Source of the DNA: a virus
Taxonomy: Duplodnaviria > Caudoviricetes
DNA length: 51,719 bases
Virus record (IMG/VR): IMGVR_UViG_3300029258_001571
Coordinates: 1 to 51,719 of that record
Reading direction: 5' to 3' (one strand)
A program made the position numbers and the translations under genes. This document shows, piece after piece, positions 3,582 to 27,957 of this stretch (the first letter of the stretch is position 1; each line of letters begins with the position of its first letter). The notes beneath the pieces were generated by a model that saw only the letters and a list, made by a program, of their open reading frames with translations, ran no database searches and was not told where the DNA came from.

Positions 3582-3845
3582 ATGGAAGAAAAAAACGGAA
3601 GCTGGCTAAAAGAATACCTGAGGGATATCAGGCAATCGCAGATTTCCATCGCCGAAAAGCTGGAACACTTCATTGAAGAGACATGTCCAGGGAGACATGC
3701 TCAGTTAGACACAAGGCTTGAGGCTCTTGAGGCAGATGCAACTAAGAGGAAAGCCATCTCTGCTTTACTGTATGGTCTGGCCACGACAATCGGCGGTCTG
3801 ATCACGCTGATAGGACAGAAGCTATGGACACTGATAGCAAAGTAG
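3582..3845 (+). CDS. coiled-coil protein with C-terminal TM (XhlA/holin-like)
   Basis: charged helical N-terminus, then ISALLYGLATTIGGLITLIG. Confidence 0.45.
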   Translation: MEEKNGSWLKEYLRDIRQSQISIAEKLEHFIEETCPGRHAQLDTRLEALEADATKRKAISALLYGLATTIGGLITLIGQKLWTLIAK

Positions 3846-4219
3846 AAACCCCAGAGGAGCTTGCCCTCAAGGAATGGAGACGCAAGTACCAGTTCGAGAT
3901 ACTGGAGAAGTCAAGGAAGGTACTGGAGGATATACGGGATCTTCCTCATGGCCAGAAGACAGTCGAGTGTCCAGACTGTGGGAAGAAATTTAAGGTAGAT
4001 TGGGCCAGCATTAGGGATATCAATGAAGCCACTAAGACTCTTCTCCGCATGGTCAGCGGTCTGCAACCTGATAAGGTGTCCGCCGCAGACAAGAAGCTGC
4101 AACAAGTTGCAGTGAACGGAGAGGTCTCTGACGAATTACTTGAGGAGATTGAGAGACTAGCACATGGCGGCGACGAATGGAAAAACGAACCTGATCCTGA
4201 AGATCGGAAAAAAACTTAA
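3824..4219 (+). CDS. putative terminase small subunit (CPDCG motif)
   Basis: overlaps the terminase large subunit start; helical, acidic C-terminus; positional inference. Confidence 0.45.
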   Translation: MDTDSKVETPEELALKEWRRKYQFEILEKSRKVLEDIRDLPHGQKTVECPDCGKKFKVDWASIRDINEATKTLLRMVSGLQPDKVSAADKKLQQVAVNGEVSDELLEEIERLAHGGDEWKNEPDPEDRKKT

Positions 4220-5849
4220 CTACTACCGGGCGCTGTGTGACCGGTCATTCTTTCACTTTGTCCGTATCGTGGGCGGCCACGTCCACCAGGGCGGCGTAGC
4301 CAACGAACACATACATGGCAGGCTGTGCCGCTTCACGCAGGATACTAGACACAATAAACGCAACGCTATCGGGACACCCCGAGACTGGCTGAAGTCTACC
4401 ATCTTCACTAAGTGGAAGGGCATATGGGACTATCTGCAAGATACTGAGGAGCGCCAGCTTATCGCCGCTGAGAATGCCAAGCTAGCCTCACGCATGCTGA
4501 AGTGGATCGGCAAGCAATTCATGACCAACGAAATGTTGAGGTTACTTTACTCAGATCGCCTGCAGTACCAGCACCCGGACGATGACTATGGTCACACCCG
4601 TATCATAGATGGCTACTGGTCAAGGACATCCACCTGGTCCGGCGAAGCACTTGAGCTACCAAGGATAGGCAGCTGGGCTGAGCCTGCCTTTACTGCCATT
4701 GGTATCGGCGGAGCCGCCCAGTCAGGTCACTACACCACCATACATATCGACGACCTCGTTGGTGAGAAAGCAATGGAGTCTGAGCTTGTGATGGAGGACG
4801 TTTACCGGTGGTTCGATAACGTGGATGAGCTTCTAGTGAACCCCGATCCAGAGAACCCGGAAGGAAGCAAGGTCAATGTGGTCGGTACCCATTGGGGTGC
4901 CGGTGATTTCTTCTGCTATGTCCAAGAGAAGTACAAAGATTACAAATGGAATATAGTGCCAGCCCTGAAGGATTCTAGTCTCAAGGATACTGAAACAGTA
5001 ACCTGGGTGCAACATCCATACCAGCCGGATATGGAAACTAACTGGCCGGGCAGCCCGTTCACTACTCAGTATTACATCAACATGATGAACAACCCTGAGA
5101 AGGTTATGGTGTTCTGGGCACAGCATATGAATAACCCCCACAAGGGGAAAGGACTAAACAAATTTGAGAAGACCTGGCTCAGGTTTTACAGGTGGGATAA
5201 GAGAGATGCTGGGCTATGGCTTGTATGCCTCGATAAGGATGGAAAAGATGCAGAGGTATTCAAGGTTTCCGATATCCCTCTATATGGATACATTGATCCA
5301 GGCGGATTTCGAGCCGAGAAAGGACTCAAAAAAGGAAGCAGAAATGCTATCCTTGTAGGTGGGCAGCCAAGAGGAAGCGTCAAGAAGTTTGTAGTGCATG
5401 CTGAGTCCTTTGTATTCGACACGCCAAAGGATTTCCTTGATCGCATCTTTGATGCACACAAGAAATGGAAGCCACGTGCCTGGCAAATAGATACGGCTGG
5501 ACAGCAGAGATATATCTATAACGATGTGTTAGAAGAGAGAAAGCGGCGTAAGGTACGGCTTCCTATATCGCCGATAGAAGAGGATAAGAGCCGAGACTCT
5601 AAGGACAAGGACATTGAAGCCCTACTATACCCGGTGTCTAATGGTGAGCTATACATCCATGAGTCATTCAAGCACCTCGTAGCTGAGGTGGTGTCCTGGC
5701 CTCATGGCATGACTAAGGATTTGCTTGACATGCTTGCTAAGCTCTATAAGGTGAGGTGGCAGAGAGGTGAAGCGGCGAGTTCGGAGGCCATCAACCTTAA
5801 TCGACAGCGATTCCGAACCCGCCAGCGTGACAAGAAGACTGGGTACTAG
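4164..5849 (+). CDS. terL: terminase large subunit
   Basis: Walker A-like PRDWLKST, Walker B IHIDDL, coupling motif VGT, nuclease YIDPG...KDLLD. Confidence 0.9.
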   Translation: MAATNGKTNLILKIGKKLNYYRALCDRSFFHFVRIVGGHVHQGGVANEHIHGRLCRFTQDTRHNKRNAIGTPRDWLKSTIFTKWKGIWDYLQDTEERQLIAAENAKLASRMLKWIGKQFMTNEMLRLLYSDRLQYQHPDDDYGHTRIIDGYWSRTSTWSGEALELPRIGSWAEPAFTAIGIGGAAQSGHYTTIHIDDLVGEKAMESELVMEDVYRWFDNVDELLVNPDPENPEGSKVNVVGTHWGAGDFFCYVQEKYKDYKWNIVPALKDSSLKDTETVTWVQHPYQPDMETNWPGSPFTTQYYINMMNNPEKVMVFWAQHMNNPHKGKGLNKFEKTWLRFYRWDKRDAGLWLVCLDKDGKDAEVFKVSDIPLYGYIDPGGFRAEKGLKKGSRNAILVGGQPRGSVKKFVVHAESFVFDTPKDFLDRIFDAHKKWKPRAWQIDTAGQQRYIYNDVLEERKRRKVRLPISPIEEDKSRDSKDKDIEALLYPVSNGELYIHESFKHLVAEVVSWPHGMTKDLLDMLAKLYKVRWQRGEAASSEAINLNRQRFRTRQRDKKTGY

Positions 5850-9756: not shown

Positions 9757-10012
9757 TAGACTTCGCCTTTGCCTTGGCCTTGAGTTTATCGTAGTCCTCC
9801 TTGGCCAACAGCACAAAACCATTGTCCCTACAGTAAGTTTCCACTCTGTCCGGCATGTCATGTAGAGCCAGCATGGCCCACTCGACCAGCGTGCCCCACT
9901 TCATGGGCACCGTCTGCCCTCCGGGTTGAGTATAGACTATCTTCCTTCCCTCGATGCGGACATGGCGATCATGCCACCGCTCCCTGTATTCCTCGATCTC
10001 TCTCTTATCCAA
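9704..10012 (-). CDS. hypothetical protein with basic tail
   Basis: AAGGAG followed by TTG at 10012, overlapping the Ro60 stop. Confidence 0.5.
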   Translation of the reverse strand: MDKREIEEYRERWHDRHVRIEGRKIVYTQPGGQTVPMKWGTLVEWAMLALHDMPDRVETYCRDNGFVLLAKEDYDKLKAKAKAKSNVKRKPPQRKAVRKKDS

Positions 10013-11537
10013 TCTCTGTCTCCTTAATGGCATCCAATGCATCCCCGCCCTTGTCGATACGGGCAAGCACATCGAATACTTTATCTGACCATCCGCTGAT
10101 TTTCCACACATCCTTATCCAGGGTGGAGATCGGAGTATCCCCATACCCTGATAGGTCAAAGAAGTAGAGTTTAGCTCCCGGGTTTACATGCTTCACGGCC
10201 TTCCATGATTCAAGGGTTGTGTTCACATCACCTCTATGCATGCTGTAAAGGCCACGGTACCCATACATCTGCGAATCAGTGAAGAAGAATACCTTGTCTA
10301 CCGCCTTGCCATTTCGTGTGATCCAGTCAAGCACCTTGTGCCCATAGGTAGAATACCCCGCCTCCCCCTCTCTCCGGTGCATTTCATCAGCAGCTTCAAG
10401 CAAGGCATGGGATGAGAACTGGATAGGAATCCAATGGTCTCCGAACATGCCAGTGATACAGTTAGGCAGTCTCAATGACAGAGCCATGCCTAGTACTAGT
10501 CCGATATCAAACTGTTGAATCTTTGAGCGTGGTGAGATAGGTGTTTGCATGGACCCCGATGTATCACATGCGATCACAACAGCCTCATCATCTGCTATCG
10601 GGATGTTTGCTGAAGACATATTAAATGCTTCTTCAAGGGCATCGAGAAGTACACGTGCTCCGGTATACGGCTCGGCTTTTAATTCCCTGTATGCAGATAG
10701 GAACCTGAACGGGAACTGACGGCTACGTTTCACTCGTTCCAGATCAGTTAGCATCTTTCCAACCAGCGTCAAGTGGTGGTAGGGAGTTTCAGCTTTCAGT
10801 ATATTTCGCAGGTTGCGAAGCAGGGCCATGTAGGGTAGCTTATCAGATTCGATAAGCTCAGCCCACACCTCAGCAGTGTTGCCTCTCTCAGACAACTGTG
10901 TTTCCCAGGTATATGGGGTTTTGAGATCGTCATCGGCGATCTTGCGGAAGAGATGGGCCTTGCCATCTTGACCATATTTCAGTGGCTGTGGTGAGGGGTG
11001 AGTAAGAAACATAGCGTCACGTAGCCCAGGGTACACCGGGCGGTTGTACTTAGCAAACTGGTACTCATCGAACTTGTGGAATGCATTGGCTACTCCCTTG
11101 CGGAGGGCATGTGATAGCTTGGTGATGCCATCTTTAATGCCATTTGCTTGCTTGTAGTAGCCAAGGATCTCATAAAGCTCGTCAGCACGCTGGATTGTAG
11201 CAATGATTGCCCTGGATGTGAGCGGGTGAACGTCGATTCCATTGTCGTTGCAATATTTGATGTATTCAACGAGCAGGACCAGAGGTGACGACCTCATGTA
11301 CATCTTTGATCTGGCATAGATAGCCAGCTTCAGGATAAACAGAGGGGTTACCTTGGGGATGAGCGTTCTGATCTTGGTGATGTAGTCGGAAGAGGAAGGT
11401 TCGTAAAAGCGGGGGTTTAAAGTCGAGGTCACCGTTGCCCCATAGAGTGCCATCTCTGGCGAGTCCGTGTAGGCAGGTGCCCCTTCATAGTTTAGGGTCT
11501 TGGAAGACCCACGTTTTGACTCAGAGAATCTTGTCAT
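10005..11537 (-). CDS. rsr: Ro60/Rsr orthologue (TROVE domain + vWA)
   Basis: NYEGAPAY, RADE, FDEYQFAKY, TWET.LS, LPYMALLRNLRNI, SRQFPFRFLSAY, MIDAS DTSGSM and FTD. Confidence 0.95.
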   Translation of the reverse strand: MTRFSESKRGSSKTLNYEGAPAYTDSPEMALYGATVTSTLNPRFYEPSSSDYITKIRTLIPKVTPLFILKLAIYARSKMYMRSSPLVLLVEYIKYCNDNGIDVHPLTSRAIIATIQRADELYEILGYYKQANGIKDGITKLSHALRKGVANAFHKFDEYQFAKYNRPVYPGLRDAMFLTHPSPQPLKYGQDGKAHLFRKIADDDLKTPYTWETQLSERGNTAEVWAELIESDKLPYMALLRNLRNILKAETPYHHLTLVGKMLTDLERVKRSRQFPFRFLSAYRELKAEPYTGARVLLDALEEAFNMSSANIPIADDEAVVIACDTSGSMQTPISPRSKIQQFDIGLVLGMALSLRLPNCITGMFGDHWIPIQFSSHALLEAADEMHRREGEAGYSTYGHKVLDWITRNGKAVDKVFFFTDSQMYGYRGLYSMHRGDVNTTLESWKAVKHVNPGAKLYFFDLSGYGDTPISTLDKDVWKISGWSDKVFDVLARIDKGGDALDAIKETEIG

Positions 11538-11556
11538 CTGACACCTCCATGTCAGG

Positions 11557-11574
11557 ACTGCAATATGTTGCAGT
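11557..11574. promoter_or_regulatory. 18-bp palindrome, inverted copy of ACTGCAACATATTGCAGT
   Basis: exact copies at 16511 and 21384. Confidence 0.7.
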
Positions 11575-11603
11575 CGTAGTTTATTTTGGGAGGGATGGTA
11601 TTA

Positions 11604-11668
11604 GGGGGAACATTCGGTTAGAGTCTGTTTGCATTCCGGTAGCGAAGTATCTCTGACCTGGGCCACCC
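11604..11668 (-). ncRNA. candidate Ro60-associated (Y-like) RNA 2
   Basis: GGGUGGCCCAGGUCAGAGAUACUUCG...CUCUAACCGAAUGUUCCCC; bulged helix shared with RNAs 1 and 3. Confidence 0.7.
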
Positions 11669-11693
11669 AGTTATTCAATCAAGGAGGCAATGC

Positions 11694-11785
11694 GGGAGCA
11701 ACAGGCGATAGCGGCATTTTGTGGTCGTGGTTAGCGACCATCGATATAATTTGGTAACCGAAGTATCCGCTGTCTGGGTCATCCC
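11694..11785 (-). ncRNA. candidate Ro60-associated (Y-like) RNA 1
   Basis: GGGAUGACCCAGACAGCGGAUACUUCG...CCGCUAUCGCCUGUUGCUCCC; lies just downstream of a consensus promoter. Confidence 0.7.
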
Positions 11786-11799
11786 TTACGTATACTACT

Positions 11800-11829
11800 A
11801 TTATACCAAAAGATGCGGGGGGATGTCAA
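11800..11829 (-). promoter_or_regulatory. sigma70-type promoter for the ncRNA-Ro60 operon
   Basis: TTGACA-18bp-TATAAT with TG extension. Confidence 0.85.
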
Positions 11830-16472: not shown

Positions 16473-16502
16473 ATTATACCCCCGTATGCGGGGGGTTGTC
16501 AA
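16473..16502 (-). promoter_or_regulatory. sigma70-type promoter for the replication operon
   Basis: TTGACA-18bp-TATAAT. Confidence 0.85.
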
Positions 16503-18516: not shown

Positions 18517-19137
18517 CTAATGCTGAAAGAATATCACTTGCTGGTCCTCATCTGGTGTCTGAAGACAGTGCAAGCAATCTCTTCCGCATACAATTTTCCT
18601 CCCTGAAAATTCGGGGGAGGTTGCCGGACATACGAACAGCTTATCGCCAAACTCTTCGAGCTTGTCGAATACGTAGTCGGACGGGCCATAGTTATTACTA
18701 CCATCAGGCAGGAACGATGACTTGAAGTTGCAGTTGTCATGGTAATTGAGCAGGCGGTATGCCAATTCATCCCTGGTGTAGCCAAAGAACAGGTACTGCG
18801 GGAATCGTAGGATGATAGTCTCCCAAGCTAGCAGGTACGGTGTATTGTAGAAGTCTCCTGCAACGTGCACCCTGACCACCCTCTCTGGTTGCCGTGATCT
18901 CTTGTCGAATGCTGTAAGCTCTGCTGATATCTGCTCAATCATTTCGTTCGGTTTCTGCGTCAAGTCCCAGTTTCTTTCCCATGCATCACGTACGTTCTTG
19001 AGTCGCCGATAGAATTTGTAGGCATAGCACGTGTTAAAGCACTGACTATTGTCAAAGCATCCCTTGCCTGGAGGGATAGACCAGTTGAGGATGTAGCTTG
19101 CCAGTTTCTGGTTGCCGTGCTGTAGCAGTTGCATCAA
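18517..19137 (-). CDS. GP88-family (radical-SAM-like) protein
   Basis: NQKL, Cx5Cx3CYA, RVHVAGDF, YTR, CPA...CGRDCLHC. Confidence 0.75.
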   Translation of the reverse strand: MMQLLQHGNQKLASYILNWSIPPGKGCFDNSQCFNTCYAYKFYRRLKNVRDAWERNWDLTQKPNEMIEQISAELTAFDKRSRQPERVVRVHVAGDFYNTPYLLAWETIILRFPQYLFFGYTRDELAYRLLNYHDNCNFKSSFLPDGSNNYGPSDYVFDKLEEFGDKLFVCPATSPEFSGRKIVCGRDCLHCLQTPDEDQQVIFFQH

Positions 19138-22655: not shown

Positions 22656-23018
22656 CTAAAACTCCGTATCCTCGCCGTTAAAGAGGCAAACAAAGCCCTC
22701 GGAGACTGCGGAGAGTATCCGTATGCCGGAGCCTTTCAGCAAATCGTTGAGGGCTTCCATTGTATCTCCGATACTCACCCCGCTATCCCTTATGGTTTTG
22801 AAGATAGCATTGGCATCCAAGGTTTTGACCTCATAGGGGAGCACGCTTTGCATGTCAGCGATGCAGTCTATGATGGTATCGACCTTGTCCTTTGCCTCCT
22901 TGAGGCCCAGTCCGGTGGTTTCACGGACATACTTGATGGCTTCGATTTTCTTACCATCGGCCAGGAAGCCGATAACTTTGAGTAAGAAAATCCCAAAGAA
23001 TTTAGCTAACGTGTTCAT
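22656..23018 (-). CDS. ribosomal protein L7/L12 C-terminal-domain-like protein
   Basis: KKIEAIKYVRETTGLGLKEAKDKVD; AAAGGAGGT RBS. Confidence 0.8.
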   Translation of the reverse strand: MNTLAKFFGIFLLKVIGFLADGKKIEAIKYVRETTGLGLKEAKDKVDTIIDCIADMQSVLPYEVKTLDANAIFKTIRDSGVSIGDTMEALNDLLKGSGIRILSAVSEGFVCLFNGEDTEF

Positions 23019-23636: not shown

Positions 23637-24025
23637 AGCATGCAAAACATGCCCCAATTTCGCCGATCGTTCACCTCTTTGTTCACCTAATAGCATACAT
23701 ACCAGACAAGTGAACATTGCATGCATGCTCCCTCCGGCTTGCTAGCATGCTTTCCCCAAGAATACATATACATATCTATATGCATGCTACTAGATGTAGT
23801 ATGCATGCTTCCTTACCTACACAAGATCTGGTATGCTAGCATGCAATCCTGGGGCATGGCAGGCATGCATGCATGCATGCATACCCCCGGTGGGCTGGCT
23901 GGCTAACCCAAAGCCCCCCCCATGAGCCGGAAGCAGTGACTATCAGCCCTTAAAAATCCAGCAGGAAAAGCCAGCATATATGCATGCATGCAGAAAGCAT
24001 TTGACAAGCCCCCGCGTTGCATGCT
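23637..24025. repeat. non-coding GCATGC/(GCAT)n-rich divergent junction
   Basis: many GCATGC palindromes, including the run gcatgcatgcatgcatgcat near 23863-23882. Confidence 0.85.
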
Positions 24026-24030
24026 ATAAT
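24001..24030 (+). promoter_or_regulatory. sigma70-type promoter for the tRNA array
   Basis: TTGACA-18bp-TATAAT with TG extension. Confidence 0.85.
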
Positions 24031-24590: not shown

Positions 24591-24595
24591 CATAT

Positions 24596-24681
24596 GGTAG
24601 GGAGCCGAACGGGTAGGAACATGCCTGCTAAGCATGCAGAGGTGGAAGCCTCAGGAGGTTCGACTCCTCCCCCTACCGCCA
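24596..24681 (+). tRNA. tRNA-Ser(GCU)
   Basis: catgc-ctGCTaa-gcatg, long variable arm, GCCA. Confidence 0.9.
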
Positions 24682-24695
24682 TAGATGAGAAAATT

Positions 24696-24863
24696 ATGAG
24701 GTTTGGCAAGTCGATATGGGACAGGCTTGCGGACCTGGAGCACAGGGTGAACATTTTGGAGGCTGAGGATGAAGATAGCGACAATGGCAGCGGCGAGGTG
24801 CCCGAAGTGCTATCGAAAGAAACTTCGCCTGCAGGTAGACAAAAGGAAGGACCAACAGAATAA
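24696..24863 (+). CDS. 55-aa hypothetical protein
   Basis: MRFGKSIWDRLADLEHRV, between tRNAs. Confidence 0.4.
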   Translation: MRFGKSIWDRLADLEHRVNILEAEDEDSDNGSGEVPEVLSKETSPAGRQKEGPTE

Positions 24864-24993
24864 AAATACATGGGTTTACTCAACGCTGATGAGGTGTGAG
24901 GCATGTGGCTTTGTGCTTGGATACGGTGTGAGGAAGCCTAAGGCCCGGCTGGCCAAAATGGCAAAGGCAGCAGGCTTAGACCCTGTGACGTAG
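24784..24993 (+). CDS. zinc-ribbon protein overlapping tRNA-Leu
   Basis: CPKC...CEACG. Confidence 0.45.
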   Translation: MAAARCPKCYRKKLRLQVDKRKDQQNKNTWVYSTLMRCEACGFVLGYGVRKPKARLAKMAKAAGLDPVT

Positions 24994-25019
24994 AGGTTCG
25001 AATCCTCTGCCGGGTACCA
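24943..25019 (+). tRNA. tRNA-Leu(UAG), short variable loop
   Basis: gcagg-ctTAGac-cctgt, GCCCGGC/GCCGGGT, ACCA. Confidence 0.9.
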
Positions 25020-25021
25020 AC

Positions 25022-25096
25022 ATATCCGTGGTAGTAAAGGTAACACGACAGGCTCCAACCCTGTAGTTGCATGTTCGAATCGTGCCGGGTATGCCA
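25022..25096 (+). tRNA. tRNA-Trp(CCA)
   Basis: acagg-ctCCAac-cctgt, GCCA. Confidence 0.9.
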
Positions 25097-25111
25097 ATTT
25101 AAGGAGTTGAC

Positions 25112-25285
25112 ATGGAAGTCAACTGGAGGGAGTGGTTAATGTACGAAAGAAACAGAGAAATGGACGAGACAGATTTTTCCATGATCTTTGAGGCAGACGG
25201 CATCACACAGGCAGTAACCGACATTGAGGTCGGATACTGGGATAATGATCTGAGCATCGAAGATATGGCGATGGATCTGATTTAG
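25112..25285 (+). CDS. 57-aa acidic protein (not in ORF track)
   Basis: AAGGAG RBS; MEVNWREW...MAMDLI. Confidence 0.6.
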   Translation: MEVNWREWLMYERNREMDETDFSMIFEADGITQAVTDIEVGYWDNDLSIEDMAMDLI

Positions 25286-25286
25286 C

Positions 25287-25362
25287 TGCGGGTGGGAGGT
25301 CTGGTGACCTCGGGTGTCTCATAAGCACCATCAGGTGGGTTCGATTCCCATACCCGCTACCA
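25287..25362 (+). tRNA. tRNA-Met(CAU), initiator-like 1:72 mismatch
   Basis: ggtgt-ctCATaa-gcacc; U1.U72; ACCA. Confidence 0.85.
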
Positions 25363-25374
25363 AAAGAAATGAAT

Positions 25375-25471
25375 CGGTGGCCCAGGTAAGGGTTACTTCG
25401 TTTGAATCGAATACCCCCCAATATATGGGGGGTGTGCCCGAAGAGGGCTTTCCCTTGCCGCATGTTCCCCG
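25375..25471 (+). ncRNA. candidate Ro60-associated (Y-like) RNA 3
   Basis: GGUGGCCCAGGUAAGGGUUACUUCG...CCCUUGCCGCAUGUUCCCC, homologous to the RNAs at 11604-11785. Confidence 0.75.
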
Positions 25472-25479
25472 TATAGAAA

Positions 25480-25554
25480 GCGAACGTGGTGTTAACGGTA
25501 GCATTGAGGCCTTCCAAGCCACCGGTGCGGGTTCGAGTCCCGCCGTTCGCTCCA
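25480..25554 (+). tRNA. tRNA-Gly(UCC)
   Basis: ggc-ctTCCaa-gcc, GCGAACG/CGTTCGC, TCCA. Confidence 0.9.
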
Positions 25555-25555
25555 T

Positions 25556-25658
25556 GGGCGGTAAACCTGCATGCTGAAGCCCGGCGGTGGTGGCTGATAT
25601 GATCTGGGTAGCACCCAGGCTCCAGCTAAGGAAGTCGGGTGTAAGGAGCCGCCCTCCA
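25556..25658 (+). ncRNA. unidentified rod-like RNA with acceptor-like stem and UCCA end
   Basis: GGGCGGT/GCCGCCC-TCCA; nested stems; no T-loop or anticodon arm. Confidence 0.6.
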
Positions 25659-25659
25659 G

Positions 25660-25735
25660 GCCAGGGTAGTGTCAATAGCAGCATACCTGTTTTGTAATCA
25701 GGTGGTGGCGGTGCAACTCCAGCCCCTTGGCTCCA
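25660..25735 (+). tRNA. tRNA-Thr(UGU)
   Basis: cctgt-ttTGTaa-tcagg, TCCA; bulged T stem. Confidence 0.8.
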
Positions 25736-26053: not shown

Positions 26054-26167
26054 ATGGCAAAAGGAGTTCCAAAACGCGACGGATCAGGTAGGGGCGTGAG
26101 AGCTAACCGAGGCCGTGGCGGATGTAAGACAACAAAGAAATCTGGCCGTGGTCGCAGGAAACGCTAA
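26054..26167 (+). CDS. 37-aa Arg/Gly/Lys-rich peptide
   Basis: TAAGGA RBS; MAKGVPKRDGSGRGVRANRGRGGCKTTKKSGRGRRKR. Confidence 0.6.
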   Translation: MAKGVPKRDGSGRGVRANRGRGGCKTTKKSGRGRRKR

Positions 26168-26190: not shown

Positions 26191-26319
26191 ATGCCTGTAC
26201 GAAAAGCAAGCAACGGTAAGTGGCGGATAGGATCCGGCAAGGCCATGTACAAGAGCAAGGCCTCTGCTGAGCGTGCCTATCGGGCGTACCGTGCCAGGAA
26301 GCATTCAAAGAAGAAATAG
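26191..26319 (+). CDS. 42-aa basic peptide
   Basis: MPVRKASNGKWRIGSGKAMYKSKASAERAYRAYRARKHSKKK. Confidence 0.55.
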   Translation: MPVRKASNGKWRIGSGKAMYKSKASAERAYRAYRARKHSKKK

Positions 26320-26483: not shown

Positions 26484-26594
26484 ATGATAGAGGCACTGAT
26501 TGGAATTGTGGTCTTGGCCGCATTTACTTACCTCGTATTTAAATACGGATTCAAGATCGACTTGATCAAGAAAATTAAAGGTTTATTCAAATAG
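26484..26594 (+). CDS. 36-aa membrane peptide
   Basis: GGGAG RBS; MIEALIGIVVLAAFTYLVFKYG... Confidence 0.6.
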   Translation: MIEALIGIVVLAAFTYLVFKYGFKIDLIKKIKGLFK

Positions 26595-26934: not shown

Positions 26935-27009
26935 GTTCGCATCTTCCAACGGCTAGGAAGCTCGCCCGATAAGCGAGTAATGATGGTTCGAGTCCATCTG
27001 CGGACACCA
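26935..27009 (+). tRNA. tRNA-Ile(GAU)
   Basis: ctcgc-ccGATaa-gcgag, ACCA. Confidence 0.88.
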
Positions 27010-27010
27010 C

Positions 27011-27087
27011 GGTAGAGTAGCTCTTAACAGTAGAGCGGTGGCTTGAAGAGCCATGCGTTGGAGGTGCAAATCCTTCCTCTACCACCA
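27011..27087 (+). tRNA. tRNA-Phe(GAA)
   Basis: gtggc-ttGAAga-gccat, ACCA. Confidence 0.88.
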
Positions 27088-27522: not shown

Positions 27523-27552
27523 TTGACAACACCCCGAGAAATGTGCTATAAT
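27523..27552 (+). promoter_or_regulatory. sigma70-type promoter upstream of the head genes
   Basis: TTGACA-18bp-TATAAT with TG extension. Confidence 0.85.
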
Positions 27553-27880: not shown

Positions 27881-27957
27881 ACTATCGAGGATGAAGGAGT
27901 CGAGTCATCGCCCTGTCACGGCGAAGGAAGCCAGTGCGAGTCTGGTCGATAGTGCCA
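27881..27957 (+). tRNA. tRNA-Asp(GUC)
   Basis: tcgcc-ctGTCac-ggcga, ACTATCG/CGATAGT, GCCA. Confidence 0.88.

Follow-up and report, generated by a model that had tools for sequence, protein, structure and literature searches.

The sequence analysed here (the window: the whole stretch of 51,719 nucleotides) represents an entire phage genome of 51.7 kb, with direct repeats at its termini. Its minus strand encodes a Ro60 homologue preceded by two Y RNAs, RNA1 and RNA2, and its plus strand carries a third member of the same RNA family, RNA3, inside a tRNA array. The principal features of both regions are the following, with scores from the covariance model R1 described below.

10005..11537, minus strand: Ro60/TROVE gene, 510 aa (Pfam TROVE 1.9e-38; vWA_Ro60 5.3e-5; PHROG 850 6.4e-51)
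11600..11671 (approximate), minus strand: RNA2, a short Y RNA, 65 nt upstream of the Ro60 start (R1 44.7 bits, E 1.4e-10)
11691..11787 (approximate), minus strand: RNA1, a Y RNA with a more divergent sequence (GACCCAG), first in the Ro60 transcription unit (R1 29.2 bits, E 3.8e-6)
11800..11829, minus strand: perfect consensus promoter (TTGACA, 18 nt, TATAAT, with TG) before RNA1-RNA2-Ro60
24001..24030, plus strand: perfect consensus promoter of the class just listed, heading the tRNA array that holds RNA3
25287..25362, plus strand: tRNA-Met (CAU), followed by a 12-nt spacer to RNA3
25375..25471, plus strand: RNA3, the third Y RNA, recognised by its sequence, its fold (z = -3.7) and R1 (41.6 bits)
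25480..25554, plus strand: tRNA-Gly (UCC), after an 8-nt spacer from RNA3

The best solved relative of the window Ro60 is that of Thermus phage phiLo (9KOP/9L5Y, E 5e-26). Searches with the protein for closer phage relatives reached at best 44% identity among viral contigs (5 loci) and 48% among metagenome contigs (37 loci), and DNA comparison with named phages gave matches confined to the tRNAs flanking RNA3. None of the phage's genes was recognised as encoding an RNA repair enzyme or a nuclease. Directly before the ATG of Ro60, a hairpin at 11538-11558 (minus strand) holds the Shine-Dalgarno sequence GGAGG in its loop; the same arrangement occurs at locus L004, where the stem bases are different yet complementary.

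Contigs of four coded runs or studies span the region, with zero differing letters across RNA1, RNA2 and RNA3. One contig, from a run not flagged as a possible source, covers 24593-25538, also with zero differing letters, so the tRNA-Met/RNA3/tRNA-Gly junction is not an assembly artefact. In contigs of two coded runs, position 18831 is joined to 20472 (1640 bases skipped), which suggests a deletion variant of the phage.

The initial annotation had placed a third copy of a Ro60-linked RNA about 14 kb from Ro60, on the opposite strand and between tRNA-Met and tRNA-Gly. The strings it quoted are present at 25376-25470 (plus strand) for RNA3 and 11667-11603 (minus strand) for RNA2; the flanking tRNAs and the strand are as described, and the distance from Ro60 is 13.8 kb. 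RNA3 is built from the following elements, the interior hairpins being those of the minimum-energy fold.

25375-25377 / 25469-25471, plus strand: terminal stem
25378, plus strand: bulged U
25379-80 / 25467-68, plus strand: GG/CC pairs
Between the GG/CC pairs and the CA/UG step, plus strand: 2x2 internal loop, CC/UU
25383-84 / 25463-64, plus strand: CA/UG step
25460-62, plus strand: 3-nt bulge, GCA
25385-92 / 25452-59, plus strand: 8-bp helix
25393-96, plus strand: UUAC (UUACUUC spans 25393-25399)
25397-25411 (25398-25410 in the minimum-energy fold), plus strand: interior hairpin 1, with a 7-nt loop
25411-25435, plus strand: interior hairpin 2, 10 bp
25436-25448, plus strand: interior hairpin 3

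The minimum-energy fold has -44.4 kcal/mol (z = -3.7) and was equalled by 1 of 200 shuffles. It reproduces the three interior hairpins that had been proposed from the letters, and predicts a four-way junction made of the Ro60 stem and these hairpins. Hairpin 1 matches the first hairpin of the RNA family described below in position and in stem sequence (UUCG...CGA). The second hairpin is long and G+C-rich; the third has 4 bp, GCCC/GGGC, and in long members of the family the same place is occupied by a D stem, GCUC/GAGC.

RNA2 and RNA3 are identical in their first 12 nt and last 10 nt, and their interiors are unrelated. From RNA2 to RNA3 the differences in the 8-bp helix preserve pairing as claimed: A-U becomes G-C on both sides, C.A becomes A-U and U-A becomes U.G. 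The 3-nt bulge is retained throughout, as GAA in RNA2, GCA in RNA3 and GCC in RNA1. Metazoan Y RNAs also have a 3-nt bulge.

RNA3 shares its layout with a very large phage Y RNA family, which can be written UGGCGUAG-N7-YUACUUC ... CGNNUGUUCC. On the 5' side, a variable terminal stem leads to a bulged U and GGCGUAG, and seven variable positions then separate GGCGUAG from (U/A)UACUUC. The interior differs in length between members; on its 3' side come the complement of the seven positions, C, a 3-nt bulge with G as its first base, and UGUUCC. In other viral contigs, the same layout occurred on the upstream as well as the downstream side of Ro60 homologues. An exact scan with TGGCGTAG-N7-WTACTTC matched at least 120 viral contigs, often with 2-3 tandem copies. 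When a script further required the 3' motif and at least six of seven complementary bases, 83 complete elements remained in 55 sources (54 loci and the window), 78 of them with TTACTTC or ATACTTC.

We aligned 19 short elements from other phages, with zero window sequence, and built the covariance model R1 from them. In this alignment, 95.4% of cells are paired under the proposed 17-pair structure, and the covariation score (0.682, vs 0.201 for shuffles) was reached by none of 500 shuffles. Sliding the 3' partners by 1-3 columns lowers the paired cells to 38.7-52.3%. Five terminal-stem pairs, which had no part in selecting the sequences, covary strongly.

Run over the whole window on both strands with filters off, R1 returned RNA2 at 44.7 bits, RNA3 at 41.6 bits (E about 1e-9) and RNA1 at 29.2 bits; the fourth-best match had 10.4 bits and E about 1. 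With three matches so far above the next, the third copy is real and the window holds exactly three. R1 aligns RNA3 end to end, with 15 of the 17 model pairs standard, and 16 of the 17 invariant columns of alignment A2 are retained. Both the closing-stem layout of the family and the invariant (A/U)UACUUC after the helix are found in RNA3. The claim of a third Ro60-linked RNA is thus upheld by a model built from the RNAs of other phages.

On the strength of its sequence, RNA3 is a Y RNA: a known kind of RNA at an unusual location. The observation made by the initial annotation is therefore confirmed by sequence, fold and R1, and its interpretation is supported in part. A conserved docking stem with differing interiors is indeed present, and interchangeable modules on such a stem are the accepted, established design of Y RNAs (PMC4201824). 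Its treatment as a new kind of element fails, since RNA3 belongs to the YrlA/YrlB-like class of Y RNAs already described in phages.

The location between tRNAs and the predicted four-way junction, with a 4-bp stem at the D-arm position and a 7-nt loop, might also be expected of a degenerate tRNA or tRNA pseudogene of the array. This reading is close to refuted: no ARAGORN call and no match to the Rfam tRNA model (RF00005, E up to 5) falls at 25375-25471, RNA3 has neither T-loop or D-loop sequence nor a free acceptor end, and it fits the Y RNA model at E 1e-9.

The long members of the family provide the tie to YrlA. Their T arm, acceptor-like hairpin and D arm all show covariation, and their scores against Rfam YrlA, 35-52 bits (E 1e-8 to 5e-4), are significant although below the gathering score of 69. 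RNA3 carries the YUAY of YrlA (RF02553) as UUAC at 25393-25396; YUAY after the Ro60-side stem is a published feature of these RNAs (PMC4201824; 10.1101/312249). The published GNCGAAN0-1G motif is matched by some relatives, with GGCGAAG. A canonical tRNA-like domain is present in none of the three window RNAs. In RNA3, a search for T or D arms found no GTTCRA or D-arm pattern and no Rfam YrlA match at E up to 5; more generally, Rfam gave nothing but tRNA near RNA3, at gathering thresholds or at E up to 5. A second model, R2, made from 24 long phage members, scored RNA3 at 38.2 bits from the stem alone and left its 48-nt interior unaligned. On these three grounds (no YrlA match, no arm patterns, R2 interior unaligned) we rejected RNA3 as a T-arm-bearing YrlA. 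We infer, rather than observe, that it is a YrlA derivative whose T arm was lost and whose D loop was shortened. R2 also produced a weak match of 16 bits at 26939-27068 (plus strand), running from the T arm of tRNA-Ile to the D arm of tRNA-Phe; it fits the dimeric-tRNA false positives of which Chen 2014 warned (PMC4201824).

Pfam TROVE is present in 46 of the 50 tested records with a complete element (the test covered 50 of 54 records), and in 19 of 21 among those at least 90% complete. The co-occurrence of motif and TROVE suggested by the initial annotation thus holds for these 46 records, and it has an exception in G048. This complete 71.6-kb phage with terminal repeats contains a YrlA-type RNA that is full-length, T and D arms included (L148 5141-5260, minus strand), and a TROVE gene was not detected in it with Pfam or with the window Ro60 as query. 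Y RNAs are therefore not always tied to a phage-encoded Ro60. Homologues in the arrays of phages lacking Ro60 had been named as what would uncouple the RNA from the protein: G048 provides one homologue without Ro60, but its RNA lies outside a tRNA array.

In the 46 TROVE-bearing records, R1 matches (E up to 0.001) all lie on the TROVE strand within about 4.6 kb. Matches to the canonical pattern keep to the same strand and range, except for two in G010 that R1 does not support. From the metagenome Ro60 loci, of which 28 of 37 were searched after leaving out nine apparent repeats, we obtained 31 matches in 17 loci, all on the Ro60 strand and within about 1.2 kb. Among the records examined, RNA3 is the sole copy both far from Ro60 and on the opposite strand. 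In G003, one copy lies 12.6 kb from two others; this record is a fragment, 21% complete, in which a TROVE gene was not detected. Bacterial Y RNAs have been sought, as a working criterion, on the Ro60 strand and no more than 4 kb from the gene (Chen 2014, PMC4201824). RNA1 and RNA2 fall within these bounds and RNA3, at 13.8 kb on the other strand, falls outside them.

Such a solitary position could also mark RNA3 as a copy of RNA2 that came to lie in the array and is decaying or neutral, or as a mere structured spacer aiding tRNA processing. The ends identical to those of RNA2 could mean a recent copy, and with the nearest Ro60 relatives at no more than 48% identity there is no relative showing purifying selection. 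We nevertheless judge this very unlikely: the interior is unrelated to that of RNA2, yet it comes with a fold at z = -3.7 (RNA2: z = 0.1), the helix differences keep or improve pairing, and RNA3 retains both the 15 standard pairs of R1 and 16 of the 17 invariant family positions.

The 5' motif sets the window apart as well. All three copies read GGCCCAG or GACCCAG vs GGCGUAG in the family. The C at motif position 4 occurs in 3/3 window copies and in 0/80 complete elements of other records, and the change at position 5 converts the U.G pair of the family into C-G. The Ro60 recognition motif is GNCGAAN0-1G in bacteria and GGUCCGA in vertebrates (PMC4201824); compared with the former, GGCCCAG fits in its G-N-C start and later A-G, and has CC for GA as the two central letters. 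The window phage shares this variant with phiLo, where a 26.9-bit R1 match directly behind the Ro60 gene also reads GGCCCAG. An exact scan with TGRCCCAG-N7-WTACTTCG matched 33 viral contigs, and since R1 supported none of the 33 loci at E up to 0.01 we discarded these as chance matches. The derived C common to RNA1, RNA2 and RNA3 fits what one common protein partner would be expected to produce; duplication after the motif change would have the same outcome.

The array that contains RNA3 comprises 21 tRNAs according to ARAGORN, and a few more according to Rfam or permissive settings. The genome holds four perfect TTGACA-18-TATAAT promoters, vs 0.01 expected, with a common C-rich spacer. Beyond the two already listed, one lies at 27523-27552 (plus strand) for the unit after the array and one at 16473-16502 (minus strand) for another leftward unit. 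In a search for a promoter of RNA3's own we found only a weak 9-of-12 promoter-like site at 25218-25246, and no terminator-like site adjoining RNA3.

Juxtaposition with tRNAs recurs elsewhere: at least five other phage records have R1 matches right beside tRNA genes. In G021, two matches follow tRNAs at 5 and 3 nt, inside an array upstream of Ro60, while G050 has two between tRNAs, with gaps of 1-17 nt. G003 carries one match 1 nt from tRNA-Gly and another within a 14-tRNA array. In G005 and G017, Ro60 is followed by two or three Y RNAs and then, after 8 nt, by a 26-tRNA array. Overall, at least three tRNAs are present in 11 of the 54 loci. The Y-like RNAs that abut tRNAs, mostly at 1-8 nt, or are interleaved with them are:

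L168, 633-734 and 1619-1686: abutting or interleaved with tRNAs
L167, 2652-2723 and 3112-3183: abutting or interleaved with tRNAs
L163, 1722-1796: abutting or interleaved with tRNAs
L164, 2071-2174: abutting or interleaved with tRNAs
L165, 2008-2078: abutting or interleaved with tRNAs
L166, 1996-2065: abutting or interleaved with tRNAs

Co-processing with tRNAs, as put forward in the initial annotation, is plausible given the 12-nt and 8-nt spacers, the lack of a separate strong promoter or terminator, and the tRNA-abutting relatives. From the arrangement of the genes we reasonably infer that RNA3 would be co-transcribed with the array and released by tRNA-processing enzymes; the YrlA of M. 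smegmatis, which is cleaved by RNase P (PMC4201824), is the precedent for this step. A literature search covering articles apart from their supplements found no paper on Y RNAs inside phage tRNA arrays.

Family membership, a conserved and covarying structure, the genomic arrangement, a common promoter class and the recurrent juxtaposition with tRNAs are all observed, and we now propose a mechanism for RNA3. It would be transcribed within the tRNA array from the promoter at 24001-24030, with the RNA1-RNA2-Ro60 unit under a promoter of the same class. Maturation of the neighbouring tRNAs would release it, through RNase P at the 5' end of tRNA-Gly and 3' processing after tRNA-Met. The phage Ro60 would then bind its closing stem. 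The interior would act as an effector module, bringing to Ro60 a partner or substrate unlike those of RNA1 and RNA2; by analogy, this partner could be the host PNPase or a tRNA-binding enzyme. We consider it likely that RNA3 functions as a Y RNA, as the third paralogue of the phage, and that it works in this way; it would thus be expressed, processed, bound by Ro60 and matched with a partner of its own.

The effector module begins with hairpin 1, whose 7-nt loop had been described as anticodon-like. Across the family, a first hairpin is detectable in 62 of the 83 elements and has a 7-nt loop in 36 of these 62. U stands at position 2 in 30 of the 36 loops, a purine at position 6 in 34, both in 29, and the loop ends with AA in 24, counts that are uncorrected for relatedness among the sequences. 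The family stem after YUAC is often 5 bp long (loci L004-L161). The U2 and A6 of RNA3 fit the family, and its positions 5 and 7 depart from the consensus (NNU, AA). The remark on the loop has therefore gained family backing, with U2 and purine 6 in 29/36. Y RNAs have been proposed to derive from dimeric tRNA transcripts (10.1101/312249), and the loop counts are compatible with this origin, because the hairpin before the T arm would then be the anticodon arm of the first tRNA.

An anticodon-arm-like hairpin, or the cloverleaf-like interior as a whole, could alternatively mean that RNA3 serves mainly as a decoy, sponge or sensor, directed at host nucleases that target tRNAs or at host enzymes that modify them, with Ro60 dispensable or a stabiliser only. 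The loop would suit such a role both by its family-wide pattern (29/36) and by its core UUGAA, which is that of the anticodon loop of the phage's own tRNA-Ser(UGA). The place in the tRNA array points the same way, as do the Y RNA of G048 without a phage Ro60 and the proposal that phage tRNAs counter anticodon nucleases (PMC10264068). Still, we find it unlikely: the stem of hairpin 1 has just 4 bp, the loop differs from the family at positions 5 and 7, and the phage has no recognised nuclease or repair gene. RNA3 also retains a full Ro60-type closing stem, with a lineage-specific change common to both Ro60-adjacent copies. For the decoy and tRNA quality-control roles suggested by the initial annotation, the loop signature is the one supporting observation.

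A broader scenario can be drawn, to which we assign little probability. Phage Y RNAs would arise in, and mature from, tRNA arrays, as the dimeric-tRNA origin predicts, and RNA3 would be a T-arm-less YrlA derivative that presents an anticodon-arm mimic on Ro60. The particle would sense or soak up host tRNA-targeting defences, or pass cleaved tRNAs to the host PNPase, and the switch from CGUA to CCCA would keep it apart from any host Ro60 system.

Returning to RNA3 as a Y RNA with a proposed Ro60 partner, the closest known systems are the YrlA and YrlB RNAs of bacteria and phages (PMC4201824; RF02553). Like RNA3, these have paired 5' and 3' ends and a 5'-strand motif beside a bulge; like the window, they combine YUAY after the stem (here UUAC), several paralogues with different distal modules, a TROVE partner and a link to tRNA-processing enzymes. 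RNA3 differs from them in the absence of a T or D arm, in GGCCCAG for GNCGAA(N)G, and in its location 13.8 kb off, on the other strand and in a tRNA array. Chen 2014 described Ro60 with Y-like RNAs in 22 phages, considering matches within 4 kb only and discarding those that overlapped tandem tRNAs (PMC4201824). Searches limited to 4 kb of Ro60, or dropping tandem-tRNA matches, miss copies like RNA3.

Phage phiLo resembles the window phage in having a phage Ro60, the closest solved relative, with two Y-like RNAs beside the gene. In vitro, its Ro60 binds two Y-like RNAs and forms a complex with the host PNPase (PMC12135203). Yrl1 and Yrl2, as published, come from the region upstream of Ro60, where they were picked by a CGAA motif, whereas the R1 matches in phiLo lie downstream of the gene; unlike in the window, the available part of that paper describes no array-embedded copy (PMC12135203). 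The R1 matches in question are at 4517-4581 and 4708-4786 (plus strand) of L206 (MH673673.1), with 26.9 and 14.1 bits, and overlap the CDS phiLo_25. The archaeal virus HGTV-1 (L207, KC292026.1) has weak R1 matches of 14.3 and 10.9 bits at 896-964 and 3843-3935 (plus strand), both containing AUACUUC; tRNA-Asp starts 7 nt after one of them, and the other immediately precedes the TROVE gene. A whole-record model search of phiLo and HGTV-1 returned nothing and full scoring of the loci gave these weak matches, so a whole-record first look misses weak members.

The Yrn1/Rsr/PNPase system of Deinococcus radiodurans (RYPER) and metazoan Y RNAs are comparable to RNA3, as proposed here, in a Ro60-bound bulged stem and a distal module that tethers an effector (PMC4201824). 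They differ in having no sequence similarity to it beyond the layout, and their genes are their own, beside Ro60 or dispersed, not in tRNA operons. GOLLD, from Mycobacterium tRNA arrays (cited in PMC9569102), is likewise a structured non-coding RNA gene within the tRNA array of a mobile element, but it is an unrelated RNA and is not known to have a Ro60 link.

The window phage bears on two questions: the reason for tRNA mimicry by bacterial and phage Y RNAs, and the binding partners of their distal modules. It forms a compact natural test set: one Ro60 and three Y RNAs with a common docking stem and different modules, one of them in a tRNA operon. Y RNAs flush with tRNA genes fit the proposed descent from dimeric tRNAs (10.1101/312249) and suggest maturation by tRNA-processing enzymes. 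The common GGCCCAG variant offers a testable case of protein and RNA partners changing specificity together.

Finally, several minor features were noted in and around the array. Immediately after tRNA-Gly, a rod-like structure of about 103 nt (25556-25658, plus strand) has a 7-bp acceptor-like stem and then UCCA. It is followed at 25660-25735 (plus strand) by a tRNA-Thr(UGU)-like sequence, called under permissive settings only (Rfam tRNA 24.8 bits), whose anticodon stem seemingly closes a 9-nt loop. Default ARAGORN missed two further candidates on the plus strand: a Ser(GCU) tRNA-like sequence at 24596-24681 (Rfam 34.6 bits, permissive ARAGORN) and an Rfam tRNA match of 39.8 bits just after the array, at 27881-27954. 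Small plus-strand ORFs occupy gaps of the array at 24769-24993, 25112-25285, 26054-26167, 26191-26319 and 26484-26594; among their products are a protein with CxxC...CxxC, two very basic peptides (37 and 42 aa) and a hydrophobic one of 36 aa. At 22656-23018 (minus strand), an ORF matches the C-terminal domain of ribosomal protein L7/L12 (Pfam 6.4e-10).
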